Positions 2,773 to 60,743 of a stretch of DNA of 64,000 bases are shown here, one piece after another. The first letter of the stretch is position 1. Every line of letters starts with the position of its first letter. Below the pieces are notes generated by a model that worked only from the letters and a program-made list of their open reading frames with translations, did not search any database and was not told the DNA's origin. The stretch lies in the IMG/VR virus record IMGVR_UViG_2740892449_000004, one strand, 5' to 3'. The position numbers and the translations under genes are program-made. This stretch comes from a virus (taxonomy: Duplodnaviria > Heunggongvirae > Uroviricota > Caudoviricetes).

Positions 2773-4662
2773 ATGGAACAGTTCAATATCAATAAAGGGG
2801 TGACGATCAAGCCTGGGCTTGACGTGCTTCCCCCGCCAGTGACTGATGATGAATATCGCGCATTAATGGCCGGTGAGGACCGCTATCTGATGACGGAATC
2901 CAACACCCTGGAGGAAATCGAGGCTACGTTCTTCTATGACACGCCGATCCACTGGTGTGCTACGGATTTACTGGAGGCGATTAGTTCTACTCGTTTGCAG
3001 TTACACCGGACCATGCAGGCATTTGTCCGGGCATTGAACCAGAAGCTGAATGGTACCGGAATCTCTGCGGGGAGTGATAAAACGGGGGATGTGGCCCAGA
3101 GCGGCGCGCGCGCGATCGGCGGCGCTGAAATTGGCCGGGCACGTAACGTTAACGGGCTGCCGGTCTTGCCAGCCATTATTCCGCTCAGTGATGGTCAGAC
3201 TATCAGCATTCTGTTTCATAGCCCGACAGCGGAAAACCGGATCACCAATAGCGATACGCTGGTTGCTTTCCAGTTCTTACTGAATAAAAAAGACGTTACT
3301 CACACCGTTGCTCCGATGAGTGGACGTGATATGACGCTGGCGCAGGTCACCATGAAACTTGCCAACCTTGCAGAGAAAAACTCGGCAAAATTCCAGCGTG
3401 CGCAGAAGAAGAAAAAAGCCCTTGTTGATGAAATAACCCAACTACAGGCTGACAGTGACCAGAAAGAGGATGCCATGAGCGACCTCGCGGATCAGGTGGC
3501 AGCGGTAGAAGGGCAGAAGGCAGATCTGGAGCAGAAAATTAACGCTGTTGCATCGGAAGCGGATTCTCTTTATGAAGAGAATGAGCGTTTGCAGACGGAG
3601 ATTGATCAGCTCAATCGCACTGGTGGGCGCGGTACCATTGCTCCAGCGGGGATGACTGGTGGGCACTCTCGCGCGCTGACGGATCGCCTTGCCAGTATCA
3701 AAAATCGTATGCATATGGACGGGGAAGTGACGCTCAGTAATGGTGCATCAATGAAGCAATTCATTGGGGGCGGCGAAGGGTATATCCAGTTAACCGATCC
3801 GGATGGCAGCGTATACATGATCAAGGCTAAATCCATACAGGGTGTGGACATGGCAGATGCGATCGGCAAGCTGTTTAAAGCCTATAAAGCGGGTAATGTA
3901 TCGGAATACCTGGTCCAACCAGAAGAACATAAACCGGAAAACGTCGAACCTGAACCAGCGGAGGATACCGGTAGCTCTTCGCCTGAACCAGAAGTCTCTG
4001 TAGGTGCATATCGATATGCCCTGCAAATGCGTCCGGCGGCCCCTGGCGCAATACCTGAAGGTAACAAAGCAATTCTGCCGCGCCCTGATGAAGGTGACCC
4101 GTATTATGAATATGCACGCTACGGCATTGCTACTTACGATACCCCGCTTTCTGATCAGCAAATGAGTGAGTACGACCTGAAGTTATTGCCTCGCGAGGAT
4201 TCTTTCGACTTCCTGGCGAAGACACTTACTAATGGTCCGTTTGGCAAATATGCACAAAAAGCTCTGGAGCTGGCCACCAGCTCACCAGACGAGTTCCGCG
4301 TAATGCTGAAAACTCAGTTTCAAAAAACTTTCCCCAATATTGCGTTTCCTGGGGGCGCTGGCACCGAGAAAATGGTGCAGAGCATGATCAATGCATTGCA
4401 GGCCGAAGTCGGTGAGATTACTCAGCCAGAACCGGCCCCGGCACAGCCTGATGAAACGGTTAGCGAAGCAGATGCAGAGGCTAATAAAGCCATTGAATAT
4501 CTCAATAACGTGATGGATATACAAAGCACTGACATGGCGGAGATCCGTAACGCCCGGGGCAATGTCCGGGAAGCGATTGCAGCCTTCAGGCTGCCGGACG
4601 TTTTGAGGAAAACGAAGAGCTGGTTAACGGCGCAGCTCGCCACCTGGCTGATCTGTTGGTAG
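2773..4662 (+). CDS. darA: DarA-like internal head / antirestriction protein precursor
   Basis: 629-aa ORF, start overlaps upstream stop (TAACATGG); central coiled coil; identity inferred from synteny (lydA-lydB-...-darA, darB elsewhere in window), not from a motif. Confidence 0.55.
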   Translation: MEQFNINKGVTIKPGLDVLPPPVTDDEYRALMAGEDRYLMTESNTLEEIEATFFYDTPIHWCATDLLEAISSTRLQLHRTMQAFVRALNQKLNGTGISAGSDKTGDVAQSGARAIGGAEIGRARNVNGLPVLPAIIPLSDGQTISILFHSPTAENRITNSDTLVAFQFLLNKKDVTHTVAPMSGRDMTLAQVTMKLANLAEKNSAKFQRAQKKKKALVDEITQLQADSDQKEDAMSDLADQVAAVEGQKADLEQKINAVASEADSLYEENERLQTEIDQLNRTGGRGTIAPAGMTGGHSRALTDRLASIKNRMHMDGEVTLSNGASMKQFIGGGEGYIQLTDPDGSVYMIKAKSIQGVDMADAIGKLFKAYKAGNVSEYLVQPEEHKPENVEPEPAEDTGSSSPEPEVSVGAYRYALQMRPAAPGAIPEGNKAILPRPDEGDPYYEYARYGIATYDTPLSDQQMSEYDLKLLPREDSFDFLAKTLTNGPFGKYAQKALELATSSPDEFRVMLKTQFQKTFPNIAFPGGAGTEKMVQSMINALQAEVGEITQPEPAPAQPDETVSEADAEANKAIEYLNNVMDIQSTDMAEIRNARGNVREAIAAFRLPDVLRKTKSWLTAQLATWLICW

Positions 4663-5065: not shown

Positions 5066-8052
5066 ATGAGCTTAAGCGATCAGGTGGTAATGGCCACCAG
5101 CATAGAAACGCTGATCGAGCTGCTAAAGAACCTGCCCGATTATGGGCGGGTTTCGTATGTGGTGACAGCGAAGGGAGACGAGGTAAAAACAGCGTTTGAT
5201 ATCGTCGATGCCTCAGCTCTTTTGGTATCCAATACTCTGGATGGGAAAATTAATCCTGACTATCCCCAGGAACTTCAGCCGCGCGACCGGACCCGCGCAT
5301 CCAGCCTTCTTCAGGTTAACCAGATATCCAAAGATTTGCGGCCAGCTCAGCTTACTGATTCCGGTTTATCCAGCCATGGTGCGCCGATAATTGGTGAGGA
5401 CAATGCCGTTGAGTCAGGTAATGGACGGACCATGGGGATCATCAAAGCCTATCAGGACGGCAATGCGGATCGGTATCGTGAGTACCTGATTGAACATGCG
5501 ACCGAATTCGGAATACGACCTGAAAAGGTTGAATCAATGACGCTCCGGTACTGGTGCGCCGCCGGTTAACGAAGGTTGACCGTGTTCAGTTTGCCAAGGA
5601 CTCAAATATTTCTGATCTCCAGGAAATGGCAGCCAGTGAAAAGGCTTTTGTTGATGCCGACAGCATAACTCCGGCGATGATGGCGCTGTTTAACCCATCA
5701 GAAAGCGGAGATCTGCTTAGCCGCAGTAATGACGCGTTTATTCGCGGATTCATGACGCAAGTTGGTGCCACACAGGCTGCTGGCCTTGTAACGGAAGATG
5801 GGCGACCAACACGGCAACTTGTTGACCGTATACAAAACGCGATCTTTGCCAAGGCATATAAGGATGCGCGCCTGGTAAGAATGGTTGCAGAAGAACCTGA
5901 TCCGGATATGCGTAATGTTCTGACGGCGCTTAATGCGGCAGCCAATGATTTTGTCCAGATGCAGGCTTTATCAGGAGAAGCGCACAAGCAGGCTGTGACA
6001 ACTATTGTTGATGGTATTGAGACAGCGGATAGTCTCGATAAAAAGGCGCTGGCGGCATTGAAAGATGCGGTAGACCTGGTAAGGCAATCGAAGGAGTCAG
6101 GCCAACATATTACCGATGTTATTGCTCAGGGGGATATGTTCAGCGAAACAGCCCCGGAAGTGAAAGCTCTCGCGTTGTTCATCGTCGCGAATAACCGTAG
6201 CGCGAAGCGTATGGCCACCGCCTTTAAATTGATGGCTCAACGTATCAATGATGAGTTACAGCACCAGGGCCAGGCGCTGGGGGATATGTTTGGCGGTGGT
6301 GATGTGTCGTTACAGGATATCCTTCGCCAGGTGTCTCAGGAACTGGAAAACGAAGGCATGCAAGGGATATCCGGCGGTCTTTTCGAGTCCGTTTCCGGCG
6401 GTAGTTACAACGGTGTTGCTCCATATACCAGTTTGCTATTACATCGGGCATCCGGCATCAAAGACATTATTCATCTGATCAGGCTGCTTTCCCGTACAGA
6501 TCCCCAGGATGAACAGCTTGTACAAGTGCTTGCGCATTTTGTTCGAATGCCTGTTGCCGACGTGAATAAATGGTGCCGATTATTCGGTATCAGCAATTCG
6601 TTACTTCGCGGATTGTTAAATCACGCATCCTCCCTTGGGCGCGACGGCTTTGATGAGATAGCGCAGGCGATAAAAAACGGAGATATGCCACCAGCTATTG
6701 ACTGGTTTTCCATTCGCCCAACCAGGGTGAAAGCATTCCTTAGCGCGGCGCATTCGGCATCACCATTGGCAGAAATGGTTCAGAGGTTGTCGCTCATATT
6801 CACAGACCATACCGCGTTGGGTGATCTGACTCTGGACGAGATGAAAGAAGCCTCCATTCAGTGGGCCGATCAACAAAATGAGGTTAACTCAGACTTCTTG
6901 CCAGCATTCAGGAAGGCCGTTAGTAAAGCGGATGATGCCCGTGGAATTCTGAAGGCGTTTAAGGCATTGCAAAGTCGTGTTAATAAACATGTCGGTGATA
7001 TCGATGGGGTAACGGCGGAAGGCCGGGATATCCTTAAAGAGCACGGCATAACGCCAGAGTTTATTGATGAGATCAGGACTGATATGCAGCGTGAGGTCGT
7101 ATCGTCCCTGCAAATCGTAGCCAGAGCGTTGGCGGATGCTAATCCGAAGAGTGCGGCCATTGTTAACCGGGTTATTGGTGATATTGAAGCATCGGAGGGC
7201 ATGGGGGCGCTGAAACTCTTCCTTTCGCGAGCGTTTAATCCTAACGGCAATATTCTCCCTGGCATTATTGGTGAGGCTAAAAAGTATGTCAGTGAAGAAG
7301 AACTTGAGCAGCTTGACCAACTACTTAAGCGATTCTCATATAACCCGCAGACACGCTGGCAAATGAATCAGCGAAGTATGGGTTCGGTCCACGAGAAAGT
7401 GTTATCTGCCATGAACAGTGCGATCGCAAACTCATCCGTATCTGAAGAAAAAGCTCTTGAGTGGGCCGACTCTTTTATCACAGAAGAAGTGGAAGAAGCC
7501 CGCGCTGGACAGAATGGTGGGATAGACCTGCGCAAGGAACTTGCTGATATTTATCGCCTGACCGGCGGGAAAATATCGACCTTATCAAAGGTAGTTCACC
7601 ACCAGGGAAGGGCATATGCAAATCTTAATGGTGTTGTTGCTGTCAATTTGAACGATGAAAATGCAAGTGCACTGTGGCACGAGCTGGGTCATCATCTTGA
7701 GTACAGTAACCCTGGTTTGTTAGAGAAAGCCCGGTCATTCCTGAAGGCCAATGTTGAAGGGGATAAGCCATCTTTCGTCAATATCGGTGGGCGTGGCAAG
7801 CCTGAATGGTGCTTCAGATCTCGATTGAGTAATATTTATATGGCGAAGGTATACCCGCCAGCCTCAGTAAGTAACACCGGGAAAATTCGGCAGAAATCAC
7901 CGACTATTTCCAAAACGTCAGCAACGGAAGTATTCTCTATGGCTCTTCAGTTGTATCATGACAAAGAGGCCGCTGCCGCATCACTGATGAATGGTGACGG
8001 ATTGCTGGAACTGTTATTAGGTGTGGCAAAGGAGCTAAATAATGCAGATTAA
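5066..8052 (+). CDS. Large darA-operon protein (DdrB-like by position), reading frame broken once
   Basis: ORF track gives 5066..5569 and 5554..8052 in different frames overlapping 16 nt; combined span 2987 nt = 3n+2, so one added base restores a single ~995-codon ORF. Confidence 0.6.
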
Positions 8053-8350
8053 AATCGCAGCGCCATTAGGTGGAGATGCCATTATCGAATTTGATGATAA
8101 TGAAGAAGTTTCCGGGCGTTTAAGCATTATCTCCGGTGACATTACCGAGGACATGATCGCTGAAGCCATAGCTGGGGCAAATCCCAATAGCTATATGGGA
8201 TTCGTTAACACCCTTGATGCTCCCGCAAGTGATGTTCTCCGAACGCTGCATCTTTACGCTGGCTGGTTTGTTGATTGGCCAGCAGTAGATGGTGGCGATG
8301 AGGACGACGACGATGATTTTGGTGATCATGTAGACCAGATCGTATATTGA
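8042..8350 (+). CDS. Small acidic hypothetical protein, last gene of darA operon
   Basis: ORF track 102 aa; GGAG RBS before ATG that overlaps upstream stop; Asp/Glu-rich C-terminus. Confidence 0.5.
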   Translation: MQIKIAAPLGGDAIIEFDDNEEVSGRLSIISGDITEDMIAEAIAGANPNSYMGFVNTLDAPASDVLRTLHLYAGWFVDWPAVDGGDEDDDDDFGDHVDQIVY

Positions 8351-8378: not shown

Positions 8379-8381
8379 ACC

Positions 8382-9474
8382 TCACGAGAAGCTTTTTTCT
8401 GATGTCAGCCAACAGTGCTCGTGCAAATCTCTTGGTGGTTTTTCGACAAATGCCTCTTCAGCCACATCCTGCCAGGGGATTTGTTTAGCCCATTCAGTTA
8501 TAGCGTTATGGTTTGCCGAGAATAACGGTATTGTATAGGCCTTCAGCCAGTCTAATGTGCTGGAGTTGTGTTTTTGAGCGTGATGTTTCGCATGGTGTTT
8601 GGCGATCACGATCGTAGGCACTACCCATTTACTACCGTCAGTCATTGTGAAGTGCATATTACGGGGAACAGATGACTTTTCCATCAACTCCCGAATCCCG
8701 GGAAATTTCCCCAAGATCAATCGGCGATATTCATCGCTATTGCGCCCACCAAACTCTTTGGCTTTGAATTCAAGATATGCTTCAGAAACGAGAGGTGAAT
8801 CCTCTGTGTTTAGAGTTATCGCCGTGAAAAAACCAGCAGGATTGTTTTTACTATGGGCCAACCGGTGATGCGAATCATAAAAGTACCCTTTCTCGCGTTC
8901 CGATGGTTTCGACAGCAACAGCAGGCGCGAGTCATAATTGGTTAAATTGCCAGTTATCACTGCATGAGCGCGATCGCTGATTTCCGCCGAGTTAATAACG
9001 ATGAAAAGATCGTGCGGTCCAGTAAAACCAGCCAGAGACTCTTCGTTATTCAGACAATAGGTTATATAGACGCATCCCCATGTTTCACTGATATGCACCA
9101 ACTTTGTCAGGGTGTATTCTGAAATAATTGCCAAGAAAAGGGTGTTTTTGGGTAACTCGCTCCCAATAACGGAACATATAGTCAATTATTGTTTTTCGAC
9201 TATCGTTAATCGCAGGAGAAACAACCACTGTACGGGAACACGAATACAGTATTGTTTGCAGGATGCTAATCACTGCCACAATAGAGGTTTCCCCAATACC
9301 ATGTGGTGTGGTGGCAGTGACTTTGGCTCCGGTGTTCTTTATCGCGTTAATAATTTTTGCCTGATGAGGTGTTAACTCAATATCAAGCAACTCTTTTGCT
9401 GCCAGTTCCCAATTGTCTTTATACCGTTCTATCAGTGCTAACCAGGCAGATTCATTCTGTATACGATTAATCAC
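8382..9474 (-). CDS. Terminase large subunit (PacB)-like paralog, ATPase motifs degenerate, frame broken
   Basis: Track ORFs 9085..9474 and 8382..9185 align in series with PacB of this window (28579..30063), e.g. [11 protein letters not shown] conserved; Walker A reads HGIGETS (Lys lost) and Walker B reads IVINSAE; C-terminus unrelated to PacB. Confidence 0.5.
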
Positions 9475-10457: not shown

Positions 10458-10946
10458 CTAAAACGGAATATCGTCTTCAAAGTCCATTGGAGGTTCGTTA
10501 TTGGCGCTGCTCTGAGGTTTGCCACCACCGCTGTATTGCTGGTGGTTTTGAGGTTGGTTTGACTGCCCCCAGCCATTTGAGGACTGTGAATCGTCGCGGC
10601 GAGCGCCGATCATTTGCATGGTGCCGCCCTGGCTGACGATAATTTCCGTCGTGTAACGTTCTACACCGGCGTCATCTGTCCACTTACGGGTTTTAAGTTT
10701 CCCTTCGATGTAGACCTGAGAACCTTTTCGTAAATACTCACTCGCAATTTCAGCAATTTTTCCGAACAAAACGACTTTATGCCATTCTGTTTGCTCTTTC
10801 TGTTGGCCTGTTTGCTTGTCGCGCCATGATTCATTCGTTGCGATGCTGAGTCTTCCGACTGCTCCGCCATTTGGTATATACCTGATATCTGGGTCTTGTC
10901 CCAGGGTACCTATCAGGATGACTTTATTTACACCGCGTTGTGCCAC
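10458..10946 (-). CDS. ssb: Single-stranded DNA-binding protein
   Basis: OB-fold N-terminus close to E. coli SSB, Gly/Gln-rich linker, acidic tail DFEDDIPF; GTG start. Confidence 0.95.
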
Positions 10947-10965
10947 TTATCTCACCTAATAAAAT

Positions 10966-10982
10966 AAATTAATTAGAGCAAT
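10966..10982. promoter_or_regulatory. C1 repressor operator-like 17-mer
   Basis: AAATTAATTAGAGCAAT, 16/17 match to reverse complement of ATTGCTCTAATAAATTT; between ssb and lyz. Confidence 0.55.
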
Positions 10983-11006
10983 AATGTATATCTTTGAAAC
11001 GTAGCT

Positions 11007-11029
11007 AACAAGTGATTTGCATTATCCTG
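11007..11029 (+). promoter_or_regulatory. Candidate late-promoter element upstream of lyz
   Basis: AACAAGTGA core shared with elements upstream of prt, the 48378 operon and the 62091 operon, followed by a -10-like CATTAT. Confidence 0.35.
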
Positions 11030-11115
11030 TGCCTTCTAAAGGGATCGAGTCAGTCGGTATTGGCTGTGAATGGGTGTTTGTCCTGGAGCGTAAAAAATTC
11101 GCTTATGAGGTCTTT

Positions 11116-11673
11116 ATGAAGGGAAAAACAGCCGCAGGAGGCGGTGCAATTTGCGCTATCGCGGTGATGATTACCATCGTGATGGGTAATGGCAATGTGC
11201 GAACCAACCAGGCGGGGCTTGAGCTGATTGGTAACGCTGAAGGTTGCCGACGTGATCCATACATGTGCCCGGCGGGTGTATGGACTGACGGGATTGGTAA
11301 TACACACGGGGTAACGCCAGGCGTGCGAAAAACCGACCAGCAAATCGCCGCTGATTGGGAAAAGAATATCCTGATCGCTGAACGCTGTATTAACCAGCAC
11401 TTCCGGGGCAAAGACATGCCCGATAATGCCTTCAGCGCAATGACAAGCGCGGCATTCAATATGGGATGCAATAGTTTACGGACCTACTACAGCAAAGCGC
11501 GAGGCATGCGAGTAGAAACGTCCATCCACAAGTGGGCGCAGAAAGGAGAATGGGTGAATATGTGTAACCATCTCCCTGATTTCGTGAACAGTAACGGCGT
11601 GCCCCTGCGAGGTTTAAAGATTCGCCGTGAAAAAGAACGCCAGCTTTGCCTGACGGGACTGGTCAATGAATAA
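11116..11673 (+). CDS. lyz: SAR endolysin (lysozyme)
   Basis: ATG at 11116 with GAGG RBS; N-terminal SAR segment GGGAICAIAVMITIVMG; matches P1 Lyz from memory. Confidence 0.95.
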   Translation: MKGKTAAGGGAICAIAVMITIVMGNGNVRTNQAGLELIGNAEGCRRDPYMCPAGVWTDGIGNTHGVTPGVRKTDQQIAADWEKNILIAERCINQHFRGKDMPDNAFSAMTSAAFNMGCNSLRTYYSKARGMRVETSIHKWAQKGEWVNMCNHLPDFVNSNGVPLRGLKIRREKERQLCLTGLVNE

Positions 11674-11920
11674 ACTCCGGCAGCTCCGCCGACTTTCGAC
11701 AATGAAGTTATCGCTGGCGGCGATAGTTTTTGACTCGATTTTCATGGCGGTATATGTGCTCAATGAGACGTGGCCACTGGAACCGCTATTATATGCCGGG
11801 CTTCGGCTGTGCCTGACATTTTTGAGCATGGCTGCAAGATTGATGCAGCAGAAAGAAACCGCTTCAGATTGTCCACGCCGCGCGGTGCGCAAATATATGG
11901 CACGCAGGCGAAGGCGATAA
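11666..11920 (+). CDS. Small hypothetical membrane protein overlapping lyz stop
   Basis: ORF track 84 aa; ATGA-type overlap with lyz; hydrophobic core and Arg-rich C-terminus. Confidence 0.3.
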   Translation: MNKLRQLRRLSTMKLSLAAIVFDSIFMAVYVLNETWPLEPLLYAGLRLCLTFLSMAARLMQQKETASDCPRRAVRKYMARRRRR

Positions 11921-11933
11921 TAGTTAACGAGAA

Positions 11934-11959
11934 CCCCGGCAGCCGCCGGGGTTATTTTT
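11934..11959 (+). terminator. Intrinsic terminator between convergent lyz region and pro
   Basis: Hairpin CCCCGGC-AGC-GCCGGGG followed by TTATTTTT. Confidence 0.5.
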
Positions 11960-11964
11960 GGTGG

Positions 11965-14695
<2,731 letters not shown>

Positions 14696-14733
14696 TTAAT
14701 TAGAATAATTCGCATCGTGTTTGAACGGAATTT

Positions 14734-14750
14734 AACACTAGTCACTTGTT
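14734..14750 (-). promoter_or_regulatory. Candidate late-promoter element in prt-darB divergent region
   Basis: Minus-strand AACAAGTGACTAGTGTT followed by TAAATT; 12/13 identical to the element at 48327. Confidence 0.4.
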
Positions 14751-14761
14751 AAGGATTACCA

Positions 14762-17700
14762 ATGAACAAGCTATCTATGGGGGTGTTTCGCTGTTCAAGT
14801 GTCAGCGAAATATTGAAATACATTAGGGCAATAACATCTCACCGAGCGCCGATTAGATACGGCGTGGAAAAGGTGGAAGGCAAAAGCTATGACCGACTGC
14901 GCCGGGAGGCGAATCAGAAGGCGATAGATTTGCTTAATTCACTGGTGGACGGCGCGACACTGACAGATGAACAGCGCCAGATCCTGGCTGGGTACACCGG
15001 TGAAGGCGGCATTGGCGGGTCCGTCTCCGAATATTACACACCAAAGCCGATCGCTGAAGGTGTCTGGGAGATCATGAAGCTCTACGGCGCGGACGTAGGT
15101 AACACTCTGGAACCATCGGCGGGAACCGGCGTTTTTAATGAGACAAAACCGGTTGGTACGGTGATGACCGCGACTGAGATCAGCAGTGTTTCCGGTCGTA
15201 TAAACCAGCTGTTACACCCGGAAGACAGCGTACAGATTTCCCCGTTCGAACAACTGGCTGTAAGCACGCCTAACGATTCATTCGACCATGTTGTGGGTAA
15301 CGTTCCGTTCGGCGGTCGTGATAACACACGCAACATCGATAAGCCTTACGCAGAAGAAACGGACATGGGTTCTTACTTCATGCTCCGCATGCTGGACAAG
15401 ATAAAGCCAGGCGGATTCATGTGCGTGATTGTGCCGCCGTCCATTGTTTCAGGTTCAAACATGAAGCGGTTACGCCTGCGCCTATCCCGTAAAGCTGAAT
15501 TTCTTGGTGCCCACCGCTTGCCTACCGGTACTTTTGACGCAAACGGGACCAGTACAGTCGTTGATGTGGTGCTGATGCGCAAACATCCGGCAGAGATGGC
15601 TGAGAAAATCCCCCTGGTGGATGAAAGCACTCTTGAATCGGCAAATGTGCTTTGGCCAACGTTTATTTCTGGCAAGTGGTTTGAAAAGGATGGCCGCCGG
15701 TTTGTTCATGGCACCCAGGAAAAGGGCTTCCAGGGGCGTATTGAGGTTCGTGCCGACGGTCAGATTGATAACCAGGCTCTTAAAGCGAAGCTGATTCATC
15801 GTTTCGAAAGCCGTATCGACTGGTCTTTGCTCGATATGGCTGAACCGTCACCGACCGCAGACGTTGTTGATGAAGGGGAAATGCGCCTGATTAATGGCGT
15901 ATGGCAAAAATATGCTGGTGGTCGCTGGATTGAAGCTGATGCCGGGAAGGAACTTAAAATTGATGCTGCCAGTTATGGCGCGGATAGCTGGGAGGCTCTT
16001 CAGCGTAACCTGACTACAACAGAAGGCCGTCTCGGTATGACATTTACCCAGATGGCAAATGTCCGCGATAAGTACACCACATCAATCAGCGACGATATGG
16101 TGCAGCTGGTGGACTGGATTAACAGCCAGCCTGAAAAATACCGTGAACGCTTGTATCGTGGGGCGATGATTGGCCGGATGTTAATTGAATATCAGGATAT
16201 GAAGGCCGCCGGGCATAGTGCTGAACAAATCGAACAGCAGCGCCTTTCTCTGGTATCCCGTTTGCAGGCAGAGATTGACCGTTTTGGTAACCCTGGTCGC
16301 GGTCCGATAGCTAAATTATCGGGAAGCGGTGCGCGCGCCTGGTTTGCTTTCCGTGGTGCAATTAAGCTGGATGGCACTATTTCTGACGAGCTGACAGGAA
16401 AGCTGGTTACGCATGATTCCAGCGCCAGTTATGACTCCACCAGCTATCAGGACACCCTGCGTTATCTCTATAGCGATCTTACCCGCGATCCAATCCAGCT
16501 CGATGATTTCCGCCTTGCGTTTACCGGCGAATTGCCAGCCAGTGATGAAGAGTTGCTTAATTTATTGGCCAGCACTCCTGGTATTGCGGTTTCACCGTAT
16601 GGCGGGATTGTTCCGTTCGCCCGCGCCACCAGCGGCGACATTAACGAGATAGTGGCTCCAAAACAGGAATTCCTCGCCACGCTCCCCGACGGTCCAGTAA
16701 AGAACAACGTCCTTAATCAGCTGGCAGCGATCGAAGAGAAGCGCATCAAGACGCCAGCAGAGAATATCCGCTTTAAGCTCAATAGCCGTTGGTTCGACCG
16801 TTCCGTCATTCTGGAGTTTTTGCAGGAAAACGGCTATCCGGATCTGCGCTATGTGCAGTCAGTGCAGCTGGAAGGCGACGAAATGGTTTCTGACACCTAT
16901 CACGGTGGTGATGGCCTGTTCGTCGGGCACCGATACGGTGTCGTCCAGCGCAAGGATAAAGAAACAGGCGAGATCCGCTACGAGTGGGACCGTAAATCAG
17001 GTGAAAACGCGACCGGGTTCCCGGCACAGCTGGAAAAGTATCTCAATGGTGCGCGTATCGGTGGCAAAGATAGCGCGACGGCGAACGGCTACCGCGAGCA
17101 GATGGCACTGCTTGAGGACCAGTTCAATAAGTGGATCAAGACGCACGATCGCTACGATGAGCTGGTTGCCAAATACAACGATGTGTTCAATAGCAATATC
17201 CCGTATGAACACTCTGGCGATCCGCTTGGGTTGAAGGGATTAAGCGGTAAGCGACAGCCATTTGATTACCAGAATAGCGAGGTGCGCCGACTGTCCGAAG
17301 ATGGGCGCGGCATCCTGGGCTTCGGTACCGGGCTGGGTAAAACCACGACCGCGCTGGCGCTTGAGGCGTTCAACTATGAGAACGGTCGTTCCACCCGTAC
17401 TGCGTATGTAGTGCCTAAATCAGTGCTGGAAAACTGGTATTACGAAGCAAAAGAGTTCCTGAGTGAAGAGGCATTCAGTAACTACCTGTTCGTCGGTCTT
17501 GATGTGCTGATGGATGGCGATCAGATTCGCCAGGTGCCGGTGCTCAATGAGAACGGTAAACCTGTTCTTGGTACTGATGGCACTCCAGTTATGCGCGATG
17601 CTCTTAAGCTGGCAGATGAAGCCACTATCACGGCGCGGATGAACGCGATCCCGCACTCAAATTACCGTGCAGTCGTGTTTACCAAAGAACAATACGCCCG

Positions 17701-20700
17701 CATTCCGCTACGTGATGACACCGTAGATGAGCATGCACAGGATATGCTTTATGACTTCGTTGCCGCCGGGCGCGTAGCCAGCGCAATGGATTCCGATTCC
17801 CATCGCAAAGAGGCGGCGCGTCGCCGGGTATTGTCGGAGTATTCAGATACCGGTACCGAAAAAGCAGAGAAGTATCCGTACTTTGAGGATATGGGCTTCG
17901 ACAGCGTGATCGCCGACGAAGGCCACAACTACCGCAATAGCTATAAAAATGGTCGCGAAGCGTCACAACTGGCCTATCTGCCACCAGCGCGGTGGCGCAA
18001 TCGGCGCGGGATATGGCAATCAAAAACGCGTACCTGATGAAAAAGAATGGCGGGCGCGGGCCGGTTCTCCTGACTGCAACGCCAGTCGTTAACACCCCGA
18101 TCGATGCATACAACATGCTTTCTCATGTTCTGCCGAAGGAATACTGGCAGAAAATGGGGATCTACGGTCCTGATGACTTCGTTAAATTCTTCGGCAAGAC
18201 CAGGCTGGAAACGGTACAGAAAATCAGCGGTGAAGTTGAAGAAAAAATGGCGCTGGTGGGCTTTGAAAACCTTGATGCGCTGCGCGGCATATTCCATCGC
18301 TGGACAACGCTTAAAACGGCGGAAGACGTTAAGGATACCGTGGAGATCCCGGAACTGGACGAACACCAGCAGGATGCACCACTTACGGAAGAACAACTGG
18401 CGGCGTATGAAGAATTGCGTCAGCAGGCGGAAGCGGCAGCCAAAGCCAACAATGGCGTAACGACCTCGGTCAATGAAGACGGCGTGATTGAGCACGAGAA
18501 AGCCCGTCCGATCTTCTCAATAATCAGGGATATGGACCGCGTATGTACTGACATGGACCTGTACTATCGCAGGATCACCTATCGTTTCCTGCCGGAGTAC
18601 GCCGATGCGGTGCAGCAGCTGGCGGACAGTTTGCCTAAACAAGCCACCAGCGAAGACGACGACAGTGATGATTCGATCACGCAGCAATCGCAATACTCCC
18701 TGATAGATAAGGGCGAGTTTATTCAGTTGCAGGTACCGGAAGCATTTGAGCAGGAAGTGAATAAGCGCCTGGCCAAGTTTGGCATTGACGAACAGACCGT
18801 AACTCACCCCGTTACGCCCAAATACGCGAAGCTGATTGCCACGCTGAAGGAGTTTTTCCCGGAAGGTAAGCAAATCATCTTCACCGATGAAAAAACGCAA
18901 CACCAGAAGCTCAAGCGCATTATCTGCAATGCTCTTAACCTTGAACCTTCAAAGGTGGGGATCCTGAATGCTCAGACGGTTGCCGAGGCAGGTAAAACCG
19001 GTAAGAAACTGAAAGCGGTTAAACCGCCGAAAGAGCTACCGGATGAACCAACAGATGCACAGATAGCGAAATACAACGAGCAAATGGCTCTGTATGACGC
19101 CTATATCGCGCAGCAAAATGAAATGTCGCTGGGTGGGCTGGAAAAGATTGCTGCCGACTTCCAGGAGGGCCGGACTCCGATCATCATCTGCAACAAAAAG
19201 GCAGAGGTGGGTATCAACCTGCATCGAGGAACGACTGACATCCATCATCTGACGTTGCCATGGACACCAGCCAGTATCGCACAGCGTAACGGTCGCGGTG
19301 CCCGAGTTGGTTCCAACCGTGCAAGCGTTCGCGTTCACTACTACTGCGGCAAGGGTTCTTTCGATGAATACCGACTGAAGACGCTGAAGCGTAAAGCAGG
19401 CTGGATCTCCGATATCCTCCGCTCAGATAAGTCTGAAATGGAGAACGCCGACGCCAACGATATGATCGAAATGCAGATGTATACCGCTAAGGATGATGGC
19501 GAACGTCTGGCAATGATGCAGGTTCAAATGGATAAGGCGAAAGCCGCGCAACGCGCTCGCCAGAAAGAACAGGCTACTATCGACCTTCAGAACTACATCA
19601 AGGCGCAGCACGCAGCTGGCGAGGATGTGGAGGTACTTACCGCTGAATTAGAGCGAAGCAAAGCGGAACTTGAAAAGACCACCGCCGAGGTAGCTAAATT
19701 CAAACAGGCGGTAATGGCCAAAGCAGCTGATAACGCAGACTGGAAGGCCCGCTGGGGGAGCGTCCATCACACAGACCGTATGTTGTTAGCACAGTATCGC
19801 GCGTCGTTGAAAAACGCCATTCAGCGCAAGGCTAATATCTCTCAAGCCATCTCCCGCTATGAGAAATTATTGAACCGTACTCAGAAGGCCGCGACGGATA
19901 TCAAACGCCTGCGCCCGCTGGTGGAGGATGCAATAAATAAAGGCATTCTGGATGTTGATCCTGACCTGGTTAACCATGCGAGTGAGTTCCTTGTTATCGG
20001 CGATCGCTCATGGCGTGTAGGCCAATACTACGATTGTGCCGGTGATATCGTTCGCATTAAGTCGCTGGACTTCGACAGCCAGCGCGCAGACGTGGAGATC
20101 ATCTTTACCTTCAAAGGCACCAAATCGGGTAACTGGGATGTGAAGACGCTGGATAAACAGGTGGATGTAACTCCCGATGAAGATGCTGTTATGCAGAAAA
20201 TCAGTGGTGGCGTCTCCATCGCCGGGATTAACGACATCATTTCCTGTGACGATTTCTACCGTTTCCAGCAGCGCGGCATGATCAAAATAACTGACTCGTA
20301 CGGCGTTCAGACTACAGAGTCAGGCTATAGCATTGATTTTGTTGGTACCTATACGGACCCACTGAAGCATGCGGTTTACCCGGATCGCCGTGACGGCGCG
20401 CTGAAGTCGTCAATTGCAAAATGGGTGCTTGGTATGATGTCGGAAGGGAATAACCGCCAGATCCGTTCGGCAGAAACATTCCTGGTTGAATTGTTTGGCT
20501 CCAATTATGGCGATGTAATCGCGTCATACGGAGATACGCTATCCCCTGAAGCAATTCAGGAGAAAATAGCGGATGCGATCGCCAGAATGCCGGAAAAAAC
20601 AAGCCAGGGGGCTACTCGTAACGGGGATTCTGAACTTGAAGTCACCAATGCCATTTTCGGTACCAATGAGTTCCGGGCGTCAGATTATGAGATCACCACA

Positions 20701-21528
20701 GCACAGTTTGGCACCATTGGCATTTACAGCAATAAAGCCGAGATCAAGCAGGCAATGGACGCAGCAAGCGCGCGCATCGCAGCAGAACGGGAAGCCAATC
20801 TGAATCATGCAGTCGCCGCGCTGACTCAATCGTGGGTAACAGCAATCAGGGAGGCCGCCACCACAGGGAAAATCACACCTGCAATAGCGGATGTCGTAAA
20901 CGACGGCTCTAAATTTATGGATGCCTATCAAATGGATGCGGTGAAGTTGCCATCAGCCTATGGTCAACTCAGCTATCGCATGACCTACAACCTGGTATCA
21001 ATGTTTTCCGACCTTGCCATCCTTGGGCTGGTGGATCTTAACGAGGTTACGCCGGAATTGCTCAGCATGCGCAAGAATCATGTGGAGATATTGCAGAGAA
21101 TTAACACGGTTCTTGCCGGGCGCACCGATGAAGAGAAACAGGCCGACGCTGATCGGATAAACCTAGCCCTTGGCAACATCACGGAGGAAGAGATTGCCGC
21201 CAGAAACGAGAAACAAGAAGAGTTATCATCAATACAGGGTGATGCCACCAGCATAGCTCAGTCTCTTGGTCTGAATTATCGCGTATCCACCGCCGACCTG
21301 AAGATGATGTACGCACCAAAATTCGCCGCTGGCGAGGTATTTGGGCTTCAGGAAGCCTCAGGCATGAAAGGCGTTCTTTTCCGTGCGAAAGACGCAATCA
21401 AGGCGAAATTCGGCGCTCGCTGGCTGCCAGCGAAGGCGAAGAACAGCGATTTCCCGGGTAACTGGTGGATTATCGAGACAAAACACAACGTGGCGGACGT
21501 TCTGGCCGTCATCCAACAATACGCATAA
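14762..21528 (+). CDS. darB: DarB-like antirestriction protein (N6-adenine methyltransferase-like domain + DExH helicase), frame broken once
   Basis: Track ORFs 14762..18037 and 17992..21528; motifs VGNVPFGG, GFGTGLGKTTT (helicase motif I), ADEGHNYRN (DEGH), QRNGRGARVGS (motif VI); span 6767 nt = 3n+2, one added base gives 2255 codons. Confidence 0.85.
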
Positions 21529-21561: not shown

Positions 21562-22002
21562 ATGGCCACACTATCTGATACAATAAAACCGAATAAAACA
21601 TATCTTGAGGCGGTACTGCGTACGGCATTGTTAGGAAAGACAGAAGACGAATACGTTGATTTCTTCCTGTCAGGGCTACGCGGGCGATTACTGAAAAATC
21701 CCCGCCTGTACCGCAGCTATGGCCCATACTGGCCGGAAATTAAAAAATTATTACTGGAGCGCGGTTATGGTAATTTCGGTCGTCTCGTTGACCGTGACGT
21801 TCGCAAAATTTACCGTTATGACCGCCCGGCGCTAACACTCATAGCCGCGACGCTCTACAGCCAGGAGCGTTTTGATAATGGTCAGATATACTCAGCCTGG
21901 CATTTACTGCCAGTGCCTGAAGAAGTTGACGACCAGGACTATGAGTTTGAGTCTTACGATTTGGAAGTTGAAGCCTTGGCACAGGCTGGAGAGAAAACTT
22001 GA
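21562..22002 (+). CDS. Ulx-like protein (by position downstream of darB)
   Basis: ORF track 146 aa; 33 nt after darB stop; stop overlaps next start. Confidence 0.5.
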   Translation: MATLSDTIKPNKTYLEAVLRTALLGKTEDEYVDFFLSGLRGRLLKNPRLYRSYGPYWPEIKKLLLERGYGNFGRLVDRDVRKIYRYDRPALTLIAATLYSQERFDNGQIYSAWHLLPVPEEVDDQDYEFESYDLEVEALAQAGEKT

Positions 22003-22247
22003 AAAAGCGATACTACACAGTAAAGCATGGGACGCTACGAGCATTACAAGAGTTTGCTGATAAGCATAACGTTGAGGTGCGCAGGGAAGGGGGAAGTAAA
22101 GCTCTGCGCATGTACCGTCCGGACGGGAAATGGCGTACGGTCGTCGATTTCAAAACTAACAGCGTTCCCCAGGGCGTCCGCGACCGGGCATTCGAAGAAT
22201 GGGAGCAGATCATCATAGATAACGCATTGCTCCTGAATGCTGATTAA
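21999..22247 (+). CDS. Lxc/Bof-like C1 corepressor (by size and position)
   Basis: ORF track 82 aa; ATGA-type overlap with upstream gene; basic small protein. Confidence 0.45.
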   Translation: MKKRYYTVKHGTLRALQEFADKHNVEVRREGGSKALRMYRPDGKWRTVVDFKTNSVPQGVRDRAFEEWEQIIIDNALLLNAD

Positions 22248-22255
22248 ATCTTTGG

Positions 22256-22280
22256 CTATGCCTGGCTAAGCCAGGCATAG
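22256..22280. terminator. Hairpin between convergent lxc-like gene and RelA/SpoT gene
   Basis: Perfect 11-bp stem CTATGCCTGGC-TAA-GCCAGGCATAG between stops at 22247 and 22285; flanking T-runs weak. Confidence 0.45.
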
Positions 22281-22284
22281 GAAT

Positions 22285-23424
22285 TTACACAGTATCAATG
22301 TGTCTGCTAAGGAATCTCCCGAACTGATTTGTTGACCCAAAATAGTTAGGATAAGCCTTTTTAAGAGATTTAATGTTGTTAGTGGCAAGCAGCACCGCAA
22401 TTAATACTTCAGGATCCGCATCATCCTTATTAAGTTCCTGGAGGGCTTGTTCCGATTCTTTTTTCCTAAAAGGTTTCACAGAAACAAGAAACTTTCCAGT
22501 ATCCTTGCCATTTTTTGTTATGGCGTTTCTCATCCTCACCAAAAAGAATCCATTATGGTTTTTGGGCAGGCTTTTCTTTAGGTTTGCATCTGATGTCAGC
22601 TTCATTGCAAATGTATATGTACTTAATTTTGAGCGAACAGATAAAGCCTCCTCCAATGTTTTAAGCTCTGTTTGATAATTTTTGATGGTTTCATCATCAA
22701 GAATACAGGCACCTTCATCATGAGCAACTAGGCATCCAGAAAGATAAAAAAATCTTCTCCACTCAGGGTGACCTTCATTAGAAGTTTTCAGCTTAATATT
22801 TTCAAGTGTATCTATTATCTCCAGACTTGTTGCCCAAGCATGTTGGAGTTCTGTTCTTAGTTGTACTTCGATTTTAGTTTTACTCCACGGATTGTTACCG
22901 TTTTCTTCATCAAAACAACTATATGCAAGGTGAATGCCACTATATCCGCTTGGCTTTGGAGTTAAATAGTCATATTCCTTTAAGATTTTATGCTTGGAGC
23001 GACTTTTAACTAGTCGGTCTTTTAGTTTCTTTAGTTGTTCGATGTTTCTAACTATAGCTCTACATCCGCCAATATCCTGCATTCTAGTAAGGGCTATTGC
23101 ATTATTTGTTGCGCCGCCGTCAAGACTTGGACGCTCCAGTTTATCAATTATTGTGCTAAGTCTTTTTAGGCGTCTTGCAACAATAATCTTATTCTCTTTA
23201 TCAACTTTTTTTGCAGCCCTATCAAGATGATTTTTCATTAGCATCAATGGATATAAATGAAGCTCGCGGAAATTTTGAATCATTTTAATTGCTTCTTCTC
23301 GCTCTGCGCCCTCACAACCATGTCTAATTTTTCTGGCTGCTTTTTCTATTTGAGATTTCGAATATTTAAGTTCGCATTTTTGGCTTTGATATACTTCACT
23401 GCCCATTACTAACATCCAGTTCAA
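22285..23424 (-). CDS. RelA/SpoT-domain nucleotidyltransferase (toxSAS) fused to a C-terminal domain; CapRel-like candidate
   Basis: Motifs RLKRLSTIIDKL, DIGGCRAIV, SGYSGIHLAY, EVQLRTELQHAWATSLE; visibly AT-rich; TTG at 23424 or ATG at 23415/23406 as start. Confidence 0.8.
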   Translation of the reverse strand: MNWMLVMGSEVYQSQKCELKYSKSQIEKAARKIRHGCEGAEREEAIKMIQNFRELHLYPLMLMKNHLDRAAKKVDKENKIIVARRLKRLSTIIDKLERPSLDGGATNNAIALTRMQDIGGCRAIVRNIEQLKKLKDRLVKSRSKHKILKEYDYLTPKPSGYSGIHLAYSCFDEENGNNPWSKTKIEVQLRTELQHAWATSLEIIDTLENIKLKTSNEGHPEWRRFFYLSGCLVAHDEGACILDDETIKNYQTELKTLEEALSVRSKLSTYTFAMKLTSDANLKKSLPKNHNGFFLVRMRNAITKNGKDTGKFLVSVKPFRKKESEQALQELNKDDADPEVLIAVLLATNNIKSLKKAYPNYFGSTNQFGRFLSRHIDTV

Positions 23425-23518
23425 ATGATTAATGTGTTGTTACATATAATAACAAATCAAGCTAGAAATCAATGGGTATGAAAATGAAACATACCCATAA
23501 TGTTACCTAACGTAACTA

Positions 23519-24160
23519 TTATAAATAGTTCTGTTTACCTGTTAATTCTCCTTGCGGCACTTGTTTTTGCGTTAGTGTTTGAGTTCCGCGAATTATGTTA
23601 ATCAGGGGACTTAGTAATGATGGTTCCTGATGGGCCTCAACTTCTCCAGCCATTGCCCTGATGTAGTCGGCGCTGGCAACGTTGTTGTATTCCGTCGCAA
23701 AGCAACATAGTAACGTCAGAACATGTTCTGTCGTTATTTCGCTCCAGTTGATGTTGAAAAATTCATCGCCTTTTTTATCGTGTTCGGAATCGAAGATGCT
23801 TTGGTGAAGGATGTATTTGCCGGATTCCTTGCGCGGTAACTTGATCGCTTTCTGGCGTTCCAATTCCTTGTAAATCTGCATTGCTTCAATCAGTACCGGT
23901 CTGCCGTTCATGAAGGGATCACGCAACCTTACACGCTGGCCAACTCGACCGGTAATAAAGCTGTTTTCCTCTTCCACCAGCACGATAAAACCCTTTTCCT
24001 CTTTTTCTCGCAATTCGCGCAGCAGCTGGAGTTCCATATCGCGGCGGCGTTCAGGGTAGCTGGTCCGCTCAGCCATTATCAGCTCATTGTTGATCCATGC
24101 AGCAGTCATTGACGCCGGTTTGCCGACGCTCATTGAAACAACGCATATTTTCTTATCCAT
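23519..24160 (-). CDS. Hypothetical protein, Mat-like by position
   Basis: ORF track 23519..24187 (GTG); preferred ATG at 24160 after AGGGG; between ref and the cargo gene. Confidence 0.5.
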   Translation of the reverse strand: MDKKICVVSMSVGKPASMTAAWINNELIMAERTSYPERRRDMELQLLRELREKEEKGFIVLVEEENSFITGRVGQRVRLRDPFMNGRPVLIEAMQIYKELERQKAIKLPRKESGKYILHQSIFDSEHDKKGDEFFNINWSEITTEHVLTLLCCFATEYNNVASADYIRAMAGEVEAHQEPSLLSPLINIIRGTQTLTQKQVPQGELTGKQNYL

Positions 24161-24913: not shown

Positions 24914-24941
24914 AAAAAAAAAAGGCGGCCTAATGGCCGCC
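24914..24941 (-). promoter_or_regulatory. Hairpin plus U-run in the ref leader (attenuator-like)
   Basis: Minus strand reads GGCGGCC-ATTA-GGCCGCC followed by ten T, ending 5 nt before the ref ATG. Confidence 0.4.
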
Positions 24942-25158: not shown

Positions 25159-25176
25159 ATTTCATCATGGAAGCTG

Positions 25177-34957: not shown

Positions 34958-35193
34958 GGGCAGGTGTTCCCTTCCGCAAAGTAGGGAAAATTGCTATCAA
35001 GTTCATCACACCATCTGCGATGGTCGTAGCACCAAAACGCCTCCCACGGTGCACGGAAATACTTCATCCACCAGGACACTCGATCAGGTATATCTGCTGG
35101 TGGCAGTTCTTCTGGCAATAATTTGCCTGATAATTCCCTTTCCGCCCGCGACAGCATTTTTTTTGAGGCTCGCGTTCTCTTTTTCAAGCTCAT
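34942..35193 (-). CDS. Small Cys-rich hypothetical protein
   Basis: ORF track 83 aa; C-terminal C..C...C..C. Confidence 0.3.
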   Translation of the reverse strand: MSLKKRTRASKKMLSRAERELSGKLLPEELPPADIPDRVSWWMKYFRAPWEAFWCYDHRRWCDELDSNFPYFAEGNTCPQCRG

Positions 35194-38012: not shown

Positions 38013-38447
38013 TTAATGCAGATAACATGTAATCGCATTCAACCTGCTTATTCCCAATAAAAGGTTTATCTTCAGGGTTACCCCAACAGCAATTACCCTT
38101 GGGCCACCCATGTACTTTCCGTACTCTTCCGTTAACAACGTGAAGTAATCCCCAGCCAGGTGGTAAATCCTCAATTGAAATAATTCCCGCTCACTAATAA
38201 AGAATCGCCAGTCGCCCATTCCAAGAGACGGATTTTTACGAAAACGCTTTTTTCTATCTGCCAACAAATCAGCACGAGAACACTTCGCCTCTATCAGGCA
38301 TGATGCTGAATTTCTGAACCCCATAGCATCTGGCTGTTCTCCGGTACTGGTTACAGCTATAAAGCGGTCATGAAAACAAACCTTGAACCCGTTGCGCTTA
38401 AGGAACTTGTACGCAATCTGACAGAGTTCGCGGTGTGTTAACGCCAT
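38013..38447 (-). CDS. Putative PD-(D/E)xK-type nuclease
   Basis: ORF track 38013..38519; preferred ATG at 38447 after AAGGAGAG RBS; motif GEQPD...LIEAKCSRADL. Confidence 0.45.
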   Translation of the reverse strand: MALTHRELCQIAYKFLKRNGFKVCFHDRFIAVTSTGEQPDAMGFRNSASCLIEAKCSRADLLADRKKRFRKNPSLGMGDWRFFISERELFQLRIYHLAGDYFTLLTEEYGKYMGGPRVIAVGVTLKINLLLGISRLNAITCYLH

Positions 38448-58717: not shown

Positions 58718-58734
58718 AAATTTATTAGAGCAAT
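58718..58734. promoter_or_regulatory. C1 operator, perfect match
   Basis: AAATTTATTAGAGCAAT, 17/17 to operator reverse complement; overlaps dmt stop, upstream of the tRNA cluster. Confidence 0.7.
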
Positions 58735-60743
58735 ATTGCTATAACGTCATGAGCAACACCTCGAGTGTCCCCCTTACAAGACACAGAACGTCTGGCAAAA
58801 AGAGGTTCCACTCTGAAGCCACTGTCCTGATAAAGTTCTCTGATGTTTGGCGCGCCACTGTTAGTAATGAGAACCTTTGCACCTCGGCGATGAGCATCCG
58901 TCAACAGAGACGCCAGGCGTTTTTGCTCTTCAAACTTAAAGTCATGACCGGAATAGTTCGTGAATCCCTCTGTATTTGGGAGCGGTTCATACGGCGGATC
59001 GCAAAAGATGACATCTCCTTCTCCGGCAGCTTCAATCACCGCAGCAAAATCACCACATACAAACTCAGAACGCCCTTCCGCACCAAGGAAGGCTTCCATC
59101 TCCTGCAATGGGAAATACGGAGTTTTATACTTCCCATAACCGACATTGAACTCACCGGCTTGGTTGTAACGCGTCAATCCGTTAAAACAATGTCGGTTCA
59201 GGAACAAAAACGCCGCTGCGCGATGTAAATCATCATAGACTTGTTTGTTAAACGCATTCCGTACTGCCAGGTATCCTTCCTGCGTGTTGTAGTCCTGGAA
59301 GAAACGATGTGCCAGAGTGATAAGTGAATGCGCCTCGCGTTGCAGAGTCTTGTAAAAGTTAATCAGGTCAGCATTCACATCATTTAGCAGATTTTCCTGG
59401 TATCCGGCATTCATGAAGACAGCTCCGCCACCAACGAAAGGCTCAATCAGGCGCTTCCCTTCTGGCAAATAGCGAAAGATTTGTTCCAGAACACCAAATT
59501 TTCCACCAGCCCATTTGAATATGGACCGTTCGAATTCTGCCGCTGGTTTAACTTTTCGCTCTTTTGTTTCACTCCCTTCCTTCTGCCGACATGCAGCCTT
59601 GGCAATCCGATCGCCAATCCAGCGCATTACTGGTATCGCCATACTATTGCCGATCGCTTTGTAACGCGGTCCGTCAGCTGCAAGCATCGCGGCCTCTTCT
59701 TCGCTCAAATCAGGATAGTTTTTGCGAAGGTATGCCAGTTCATCTGAAGAAACTTTTTTACGCTTTTCCGTAGGGATCAATGTATGTCCATCAGGAAAAC
59801 CTTGCAGCCTTTCACATTCGACAGGGATAAGACGGCGCATTCTACCGTCGACGAGCAATACAATTGGTGCTTCATGGTTACATGTCAAAGTTGGTGCCGA
59901 ATTATCGGTTTTTATCTCAGCCCCTCCTTGCCCATGTGCCATGGCAACTATGTTTGTATCATCGCAAGATCTGATAGCGATGTTTGAAGTATATCTGGTA
60001 GTTTCCTTCCCCTCGCCTCTGCTCGGCGCAATATTCCGGCGCACGCCTTCGAACTCAAAAAGTACCGTTGCGGGATCGAGGTCTGTTCGAGCACTTGCGA
60101 CAACAAACACGCGTCGGCGTCGTTGTGCCACTCCGAAGTATTGGGCATCAAGGATTCTCCAGGCCACCTTTCGCTGCGGTCCATAAATACAACCACACTG
60201 CGGCCACTTTGGAGCATGGCAACCGGTTTTGCCATCCCACCGCCAGAACGCGTTACTTTTTCCTGATTCAGGTCGATCACCTGGTTCAAATGGCGCATCT
60301 TCTCCAGCCAATCCGGCAAGGAAACATCCGAAGGCGTTATCTGCCGATGACAGGACTCCTGGGACATTTTCCCAGACGATAACTGTCGGTTTGAGGAAGG
60401 ACTCAGACCGTTTGTCGTCAATTGCATTTGCAAGCTCCACATACTTCAAAGTTAGCGCGCCGCGTTCATCATCAAGCCCACCACGTAAGCCCGCGATACT
60501 GAATGCCTGACAAGGCGTACCCCCGACGAGCACATCAGGGGATTCGATTTCCCCAGCCAGGACTTTTTTGGCAAGTTTTGTCATGTCGCCAAGGTTGGCG
60601 ACATGGGGCCAGCGGTGCGCAAGAACGGCAGATGGAAAAGGCTCGATTTCAGCAAACCACGCCGGACGCATACCCAACGGTTCCCAGGCAATACTCGCGG
60701 CTTCAATTCCACTGCAAACAGATCCATAGCACAGCTCTTTCAC
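58725..60743 (-). CDS. dmt: Bifunctional DNA methyltransferase (C5-cytosine + N6-adenine domains)
   Basis: N-terminal PCQ ([12 protein letters not shown]) and ENV (ENVPG) motifs; C-terminal FVGGGAVF and DPPY (FCDPPYEP). Confidence 0.85.

Follow-up and report, generated by a model that had tools for sequence, protein, structure and literature searches.

The split darB gene

The window, the whole 64,000-nucleotide (nt) stretch of DNA analyzed here, is a P1-like (Punavirus) plasmid-prophage sequence. According to its listing of open reading frames (ORFs), the homologue of the P1 gene darB is distributed over a 5' ORF encoding 1091 amino acids (aa) and a 3' ORF encoding 1178 aa. The features of the locus are as follows.

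11968-12984, minus strand: pro, upstream neighbor of darB
12980-14686, minus strand: prt (portal), upstream neighbor of darB
14762..18037, plus strand: 5' darB ORF; codons 1-1073 match P1 DarB
After codon 1073, plus strand: out-of-frame tail of the 5' ORF, 17 codons (PARWRNRRGIWQSKTRT), then a stop
About 17336, plus strand: helicase motif I (GKT), in the 5' ORF
17915..17926, plus strand: helicase motif II (DEGH), the final conserved motif 5' of the break
17981..17982, plus strand: the lesion, CC for CCC, sole gap in the entire darB alignment
17992..21528, plus strand: 3' darB ORF; its GTG start is that of the mechanical listing
18073-18084, plus strand: helicase motif III (TATP), in the 3' ORF
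21562-22247, plus strand: ulx/lxc region, downstream neighbors of darB

The two ORFs overlap by 46 nt (17992..18037) and are in different frames, as the initial annotation had described. Homology to residues 1075-2255 of P1 DarB begins at 17983, upstream of the listed GTG at 17992. The complete span, 14762..21528, is 6767 nt long, which equals 3n+2. It is colinear with P1 darB (NC_005856.1, positions 10469..17236, 6768 nt), with 98.6% nucleotide identity in a megablast comparison. The alignment to P1 darB, proposed in the initial annotation as a check, was conducted globally and revealed 93 substitutions and exactly one gap, where P1 contains CTGCCCACC and the window contains CTGCCACC. Thus, one C is gone from the CCC run at nt 3218-3220 of P1 darB, and the remaining CC of the window is at 17981-17982, inside the CTGCC at 17978-17982. 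The identity, the colinearity, and the one missing C bear out the single-base deletion that the initial annotation had suspected. It had correctly looked for the missing base in the C run of a CTGCC sequence, but had placed this run at 17968-17972, approximately 10 nt too far to the left; the letters at these positions are ACTGG and not a C run.

When one C was put back, darB consisted of 2255 codons, as the initial annotation had calculated, with zero internal stops, and its product differed from P1 DarB in 20 aa. The length that it had given for P1 DarB was also right (6768 nt, 2255 codons). In a tblastn search, the repaired DarB covered residues 1-2255 with 99.1% aa identity. As given, the window contains two ORFs in different frames instead of the one continuous frame of some 2255 codons expected of darB; homology to P1 DarB is nevertheless full-length and colinear. 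The split gene is P1 darB; both the gene and its family are already known. This identification is a direct homology result in which chance plays no part.

P1 DarB (P1_gp011 of NC_005856.1, YP_006479.1; 2255 aa, 251 kDa) has the same neighbors and domains as its counterpart in the window. In P1, however, the CCC run is intact and the gene is in one frame, whereas the window has one C fewer, a split frame, and the 93 substitutions (20 aa) mentioned above. The gene order expected of darB, between prt/pro and ulx/lxc, was found in the window, and so was the expected order of a methyltransferase domain followed by a superfamily 2 (SF2) helicase domain. DarB is a head protein of approximately 250 kDa, present in about 40 copies per virion, and inhibits EcoK and EcoB (PMC9024508). 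Its packaging into the capsid and its protection against EcoK/EcoB are known for P1, and its N-terminal 30 residues suffice for capsid targeting (PMC9024508). The 5' ORF includes this capsid-targeting N terminus, an N6-adenine methyltransferase domain (Pfam N6_Mtase and Eco57I, aa 90-291), and helicase motifs I and II (SNF2/ResIII, aa 833-910). The 3' ORF includes helicase motif III, the rest of the SNF2 domain, the Helicase_C domain, and a long C-terminal region. Since the lesion lies between motifs II and III, a real break would cut the first RecA-like helicase domain.

Single-base deletions across the window

The whole window was aligned to complete P1 and to NZ_CP033848.1, the P1-like plasmid of Escherichia coli FDAARGOS_497, which is the closest database relative (99.3% identity over darB). 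Most of the window aligns colinearly with NZ_CP033848.1, in a dozen blocks that are 91-99% identical; several short segments of the window are unmatched in it. The alignments revealed 13 single-base deletions that are private to the 64-kb window and on which both references agree, except at 38190, where the comparison is with NZ_CP033848.1 only. All 13 removed a G or a C from a run of two to four bases:

4583: CCC to CC in darA, against both references
5542: GG to G in ddrB, against both references
17981: CCC to CC in darB, against both references
24682: CCCC to CCC in ref, against both references
32347: CC to C in pdcB, against both references
34384: GG to G in hot, against both references
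38190: GG to G in an ORF absent from P1, seen relative to NZ_CP033848.1 alone, in which no annotated coding sequence (CDS) covers the site
45683: GGG to GG in ppp, against both references
49770: GG to G in tail gene 25, against both references
50445: CCC to CC in tail gene 7, 15 nt from the deletion at 50460
50460: CC to C in tail gene 7, 15 nt from the deletion at 50445
54288: GG to G in ban, against both references
55444: CCC to CC in ban (second deletion there), against both references

Twelve of the 13 deletions split ten P1 genes (darA, ddrB, darB, ref, pdcB, hot, ppp, 25, 7, and ban), with two deletions each in gene 7 and ban. When P1 proteins were used in tblastn searches, each of the ten genes was found spread over two or three frames of the window. 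After reinsertion of the missing bases, all ten consisted of one full-length frame with 89-99% identity to P1. In NZ_CP033848.1, darB (6768 nt) and the nine other genes broken in the window are intact. Altogether, 65 CDSs of NZ_CP033848.1 map to the window; 51 of them are intact there, 10 are broken solely by these deletions, and 4 differ through mosaic or divergent segments. No nonsense substitution was detected among these 65 shared genes, and no insertion sequence (IS) insertion accompanied the frameshifts. As a control, P1 was compared to NZ_CP033848.1, from which it diverges to a similar extent: none of the 54 shared proteins was split by a frameshift.

The GC content of the window is 0.486, and the probability that all 13 deletions affect G or C is about 8e-5. 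Read on the C strand, 10 of the 13 deletions are preceded by A/T-G (W-G-C-run; for example, TGCCC and AGCC), while 20% would be expected (P about 2e-5). This excess suggests a systematic, k-mer-specific error, although the test was post hoc and therefore carries less weight. Neither a Dcm site (CCWGG) nor a Dam site (GATC) covers the darB lesion, which gives no sign of an error linked to a methylation motif.

The deletion allele and the origin of the frame break

A 38-nt probe (17969-18006), which megablast seeds on the deletion allele only, matched 2 of 5,426 complete E. coli genomes and one PLSDB record. In NZ_CP019263.1 (p13C1065T-4), the deletion allele is exact, and there are 39 gaps relative to the window within darB; in a 12-kb stretch of this plasmid, six CDSs are pseudogenes, and five of these bear the label "frameshifted". 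NZ_CP090325.1 has the CC run together with another missing base nearby, shows 61 gaps relative to the window in darB, and carries the annotation "frameshifted; internal stop". Like the window, both records have CC for CCC at the same site. Many pseudogenes in them are annotated as "frameshifted", and they accumulate 39 and 61 gaps in darB alone, compared to 13 deletions in the 64 kb of the window. They are indel-riddled assemblies of a long-read style and belong to other lineages, with 97-98% identity to the window. Because the two carriers are unrelated to the window and dense in errors, they show only that this C run gets under-called.

Exact-pattern scans detected the deletion allele in none of the IMG/VR sequences, in which 77 contigs contain the wild-type pattern, and also in none of the GTDB species representatives or JGI metagenomes. 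P1, NZ_CP033848.1, and the 77 IMG/VR contigs share CCC at the lesion site. Phase variation was ruled out, as the run length is invariant in the 77 IMG/VR copies; a C run of 3 nt is too short for phase variation of a contingency locus. Full-length darB is present in about 440 relatives; in the large majority of those listed, it is 6768 nt long. The best identity to darB of the window was 98.6% among phages and 99.3% both in PLSDB and in complete E. coli genomes, and no record matched the exact 1091-aa N-terminal product. Among the best 60 PLSDB matches, the darB span deviated from 6768 nt in three, which contain private single-base indels:

P1 darB nt 6617: private single-base indel in NZ_AP023436.1
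P1 darB nt 6761: private single-base indel in NZ_CP086223.1
P1 darB nt 4648: private single-base indel in CP148313.1

In these three records, darB either has no annotation or is labeled frameshifted or incomplete. Since the indels are at differing positions, sporadic single indels in darB are a familiar database phenomenon.

The age of the break was addressed by Nei-Gojobori dN/dS analysis of the repaired darB. In the comparison with P1, dN/dS was 0.072 for the part upstream of the break and 0.105 for the part downstream; in the comparison with NZ_CP033848.1, it was 0.066 and 0.109, respectively. The similarly low values on both sides indicate that purifying selection has acted on the 3' half just as on the 5' half. 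Accordingly, the break must either have arisen extremely recently or not be real. An old pseudogene was ruled out by the downstream dN/dS, which is as low as the upstream one.

The initial annotation had left two possibilities, inactivation of DarB or a wrong base call. The 12 further private G/C deletions favor the latter. Nine other P1 genes and one other ORF are broken in the same way, so the darB break is most likely a sequencing or assembly error and not biology. The indel is located in a homopolymer (CCC to CC), and no clean relative has it; many like indels break conserved genes of the window, and no other kind of inactivating mutation was found. We consider it highly probable that a systematic consensus or base-call error, and thus a technical rather than a mutational cause, is behind the break in darB. 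The missing C at 17981-17982 would then be one of at least 13 G/C under-calls in short runs over 64 kb, a pattern that resembles the residual consensus errors of an insufficiently polished assembly, and darB would almost certainly be ordinary and intact in the real molecule. Counting against an artifact, frameshifts could in principle also accumulate in a defective, decaying plasmid-prophage. Pol IV or acridine-type mutagenesis favors -1 events in G:C runs.

If the deletion were real, darB of this element would be a recent frameshift pseudogene. Its 1091-aa fragment would keep the capsid-targeting signal, the methyltransferase domain, and helicase motifs I-II, and would be devoid of motifs III-VI and of the C-terminal half, so that cis protection of injected DNA against type I restriction (EcoK/EcoB type) would be lost. 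The break is present in the sequence as given, darB is a target of 6.8 kb that is non-essential for P1 growth, single darB indels are annotated as frameshifted elsewhere (NZ_AP023436.1, NZ_CP086223.1, and CP148313.1), and the low downstream dN/dS fits a very recent event. However, a real deletion implies that the twelve other frameshifts are real as well; eleven of these affect nine further P1 genes, tail genes 25 and 7 among them, and one is in an ORF outside P1. Moreover, all changes are -1 and concern G/C, with neither a nonsense mutation nor an IS insertion among them, and no clean relative shares the allele. We therefore regard a real deletion as rather unlikely.

Far less probable still is a break that is real and tolerated, either through a low-level -1 slip in the 17947-18037 overlap or because the halves form a split protein. 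In the upstream frame of this region, the only slippery heptamers are the single-codon candidates AAATGGT (17947) and AAAAACG (18022). At the latter, a lysine codon follows an A (TCA AAA ACG), making a single-tRNA slip conceivable, but a tandem X XXY YYZ heptamer is absent, and a -1 slip at 18022 would exchange 14 residues between helicase motifs II and III. A split protein is difficult to reconcile with a break inside the first RecA-like helicase domain. Furthermore, the 3' product would lack the first 30 residues, which are responsible for bringing DarB into the capsid (PMC9024508), so that, if made separately, it would escape packaging. No clean relative conserves the two-frame arrangement; in the relatives, darB is in a single frame. 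No Shine-Dalgarno (SD)-like sequence was found before GTG 17992, ATG 18013, or ATG 18037. With neither a tandem slippery heptamer nor an SD-like sequence, programmed frameshifting and reinitiation were rejected. It would be similarly far-fetched to assume that a real deletion yields a truncated, capsid-targeted DarB consisting of the methyltransferase and half of the helicase, perhaps with partial rescue of the full-length protein through -1 slippage at A-AAA-A (18022). If true, such a DarB would represent a natural separation of methyltransferase and helicase functions.

Annotation and further features of the window

The main consequence of these results concerns data quality. The entire window looks under-polished. 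Annotation from the sequence as given would turn ten genes, from darA to ban, into pseudogenes, and these calls would wrongly imply a defective prophage without the Dar anti-restriction system. The darB break opens no new biology; even if it were real, it would be unremarkable, as one more P1-like plasmid would simply have lost an anti-restriction gene that is non-essential.

Additional length differences were observed in A/T runs. At 35157, a T8 run in the window corresponds to T7 in NZ_CP033848.1; a counterpart is absent from P1. The T8 run splits the homologue of a 94-aa CDS annotated as "antitoxin PHD" over two frames. No other indel in an A/T run breaks a frame. Two more differences are at 24922 (A10 vs. 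A8), upstream of ref, and at 25159 (T7 vs. T8), at the end of c8. Being located outside genes or at their edges, they could represent natural variation or more such error. In an hxr-like ORF (8042..8350), an in-frame 3-nt GAC insertion relative to NZ_CP033848.1 is located at 8303 in a GAC/GAT repeat. A segment of approximately 1.1 kb (8379-9466) is unmatched in both P1 and NZ_CP033848.1. Two ORFs, 8382..9185 and 9085..9474, overlap here on the minus strand in different frames and have zero Pfam matches; they may be another frameshifted gene.

Differences in gene content were also noted. At the 5049/5050 junction, the window lacks the insQ/TnpB element that NZ_CP033848.1 has between ddrA and ddrB. 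IS5 and IS1 of P1 are absent from the window (sites considered: 5049/5050 and 22248-23519). The slot after lxc is variable: it is occupied by a RelA/SpoT-domain ORF in the window, by EcoP1I res/mod in P1, and by a SIR2 gene in NZ_CP033848.1. The RelA/SpoT-domain ORF (22285..23424, minus strand) encodes 379 aa, is 99.7% identical to a RelA/SpoT family protein of Salmonella phage SJ46, and gave a PADLOC match to PDC-S33. We take the SJ46 protein to be CapRel, a fused toxin-antitoxin defense protein. Finally, a homologue of dmt (Dam-family methyltransferase) is located at 58728-60743 on the minus strand. Its product is 90-92% identical to P1 Dmt, with residues 265-350 unaligned, which suggests that the central segment may be mosaic.
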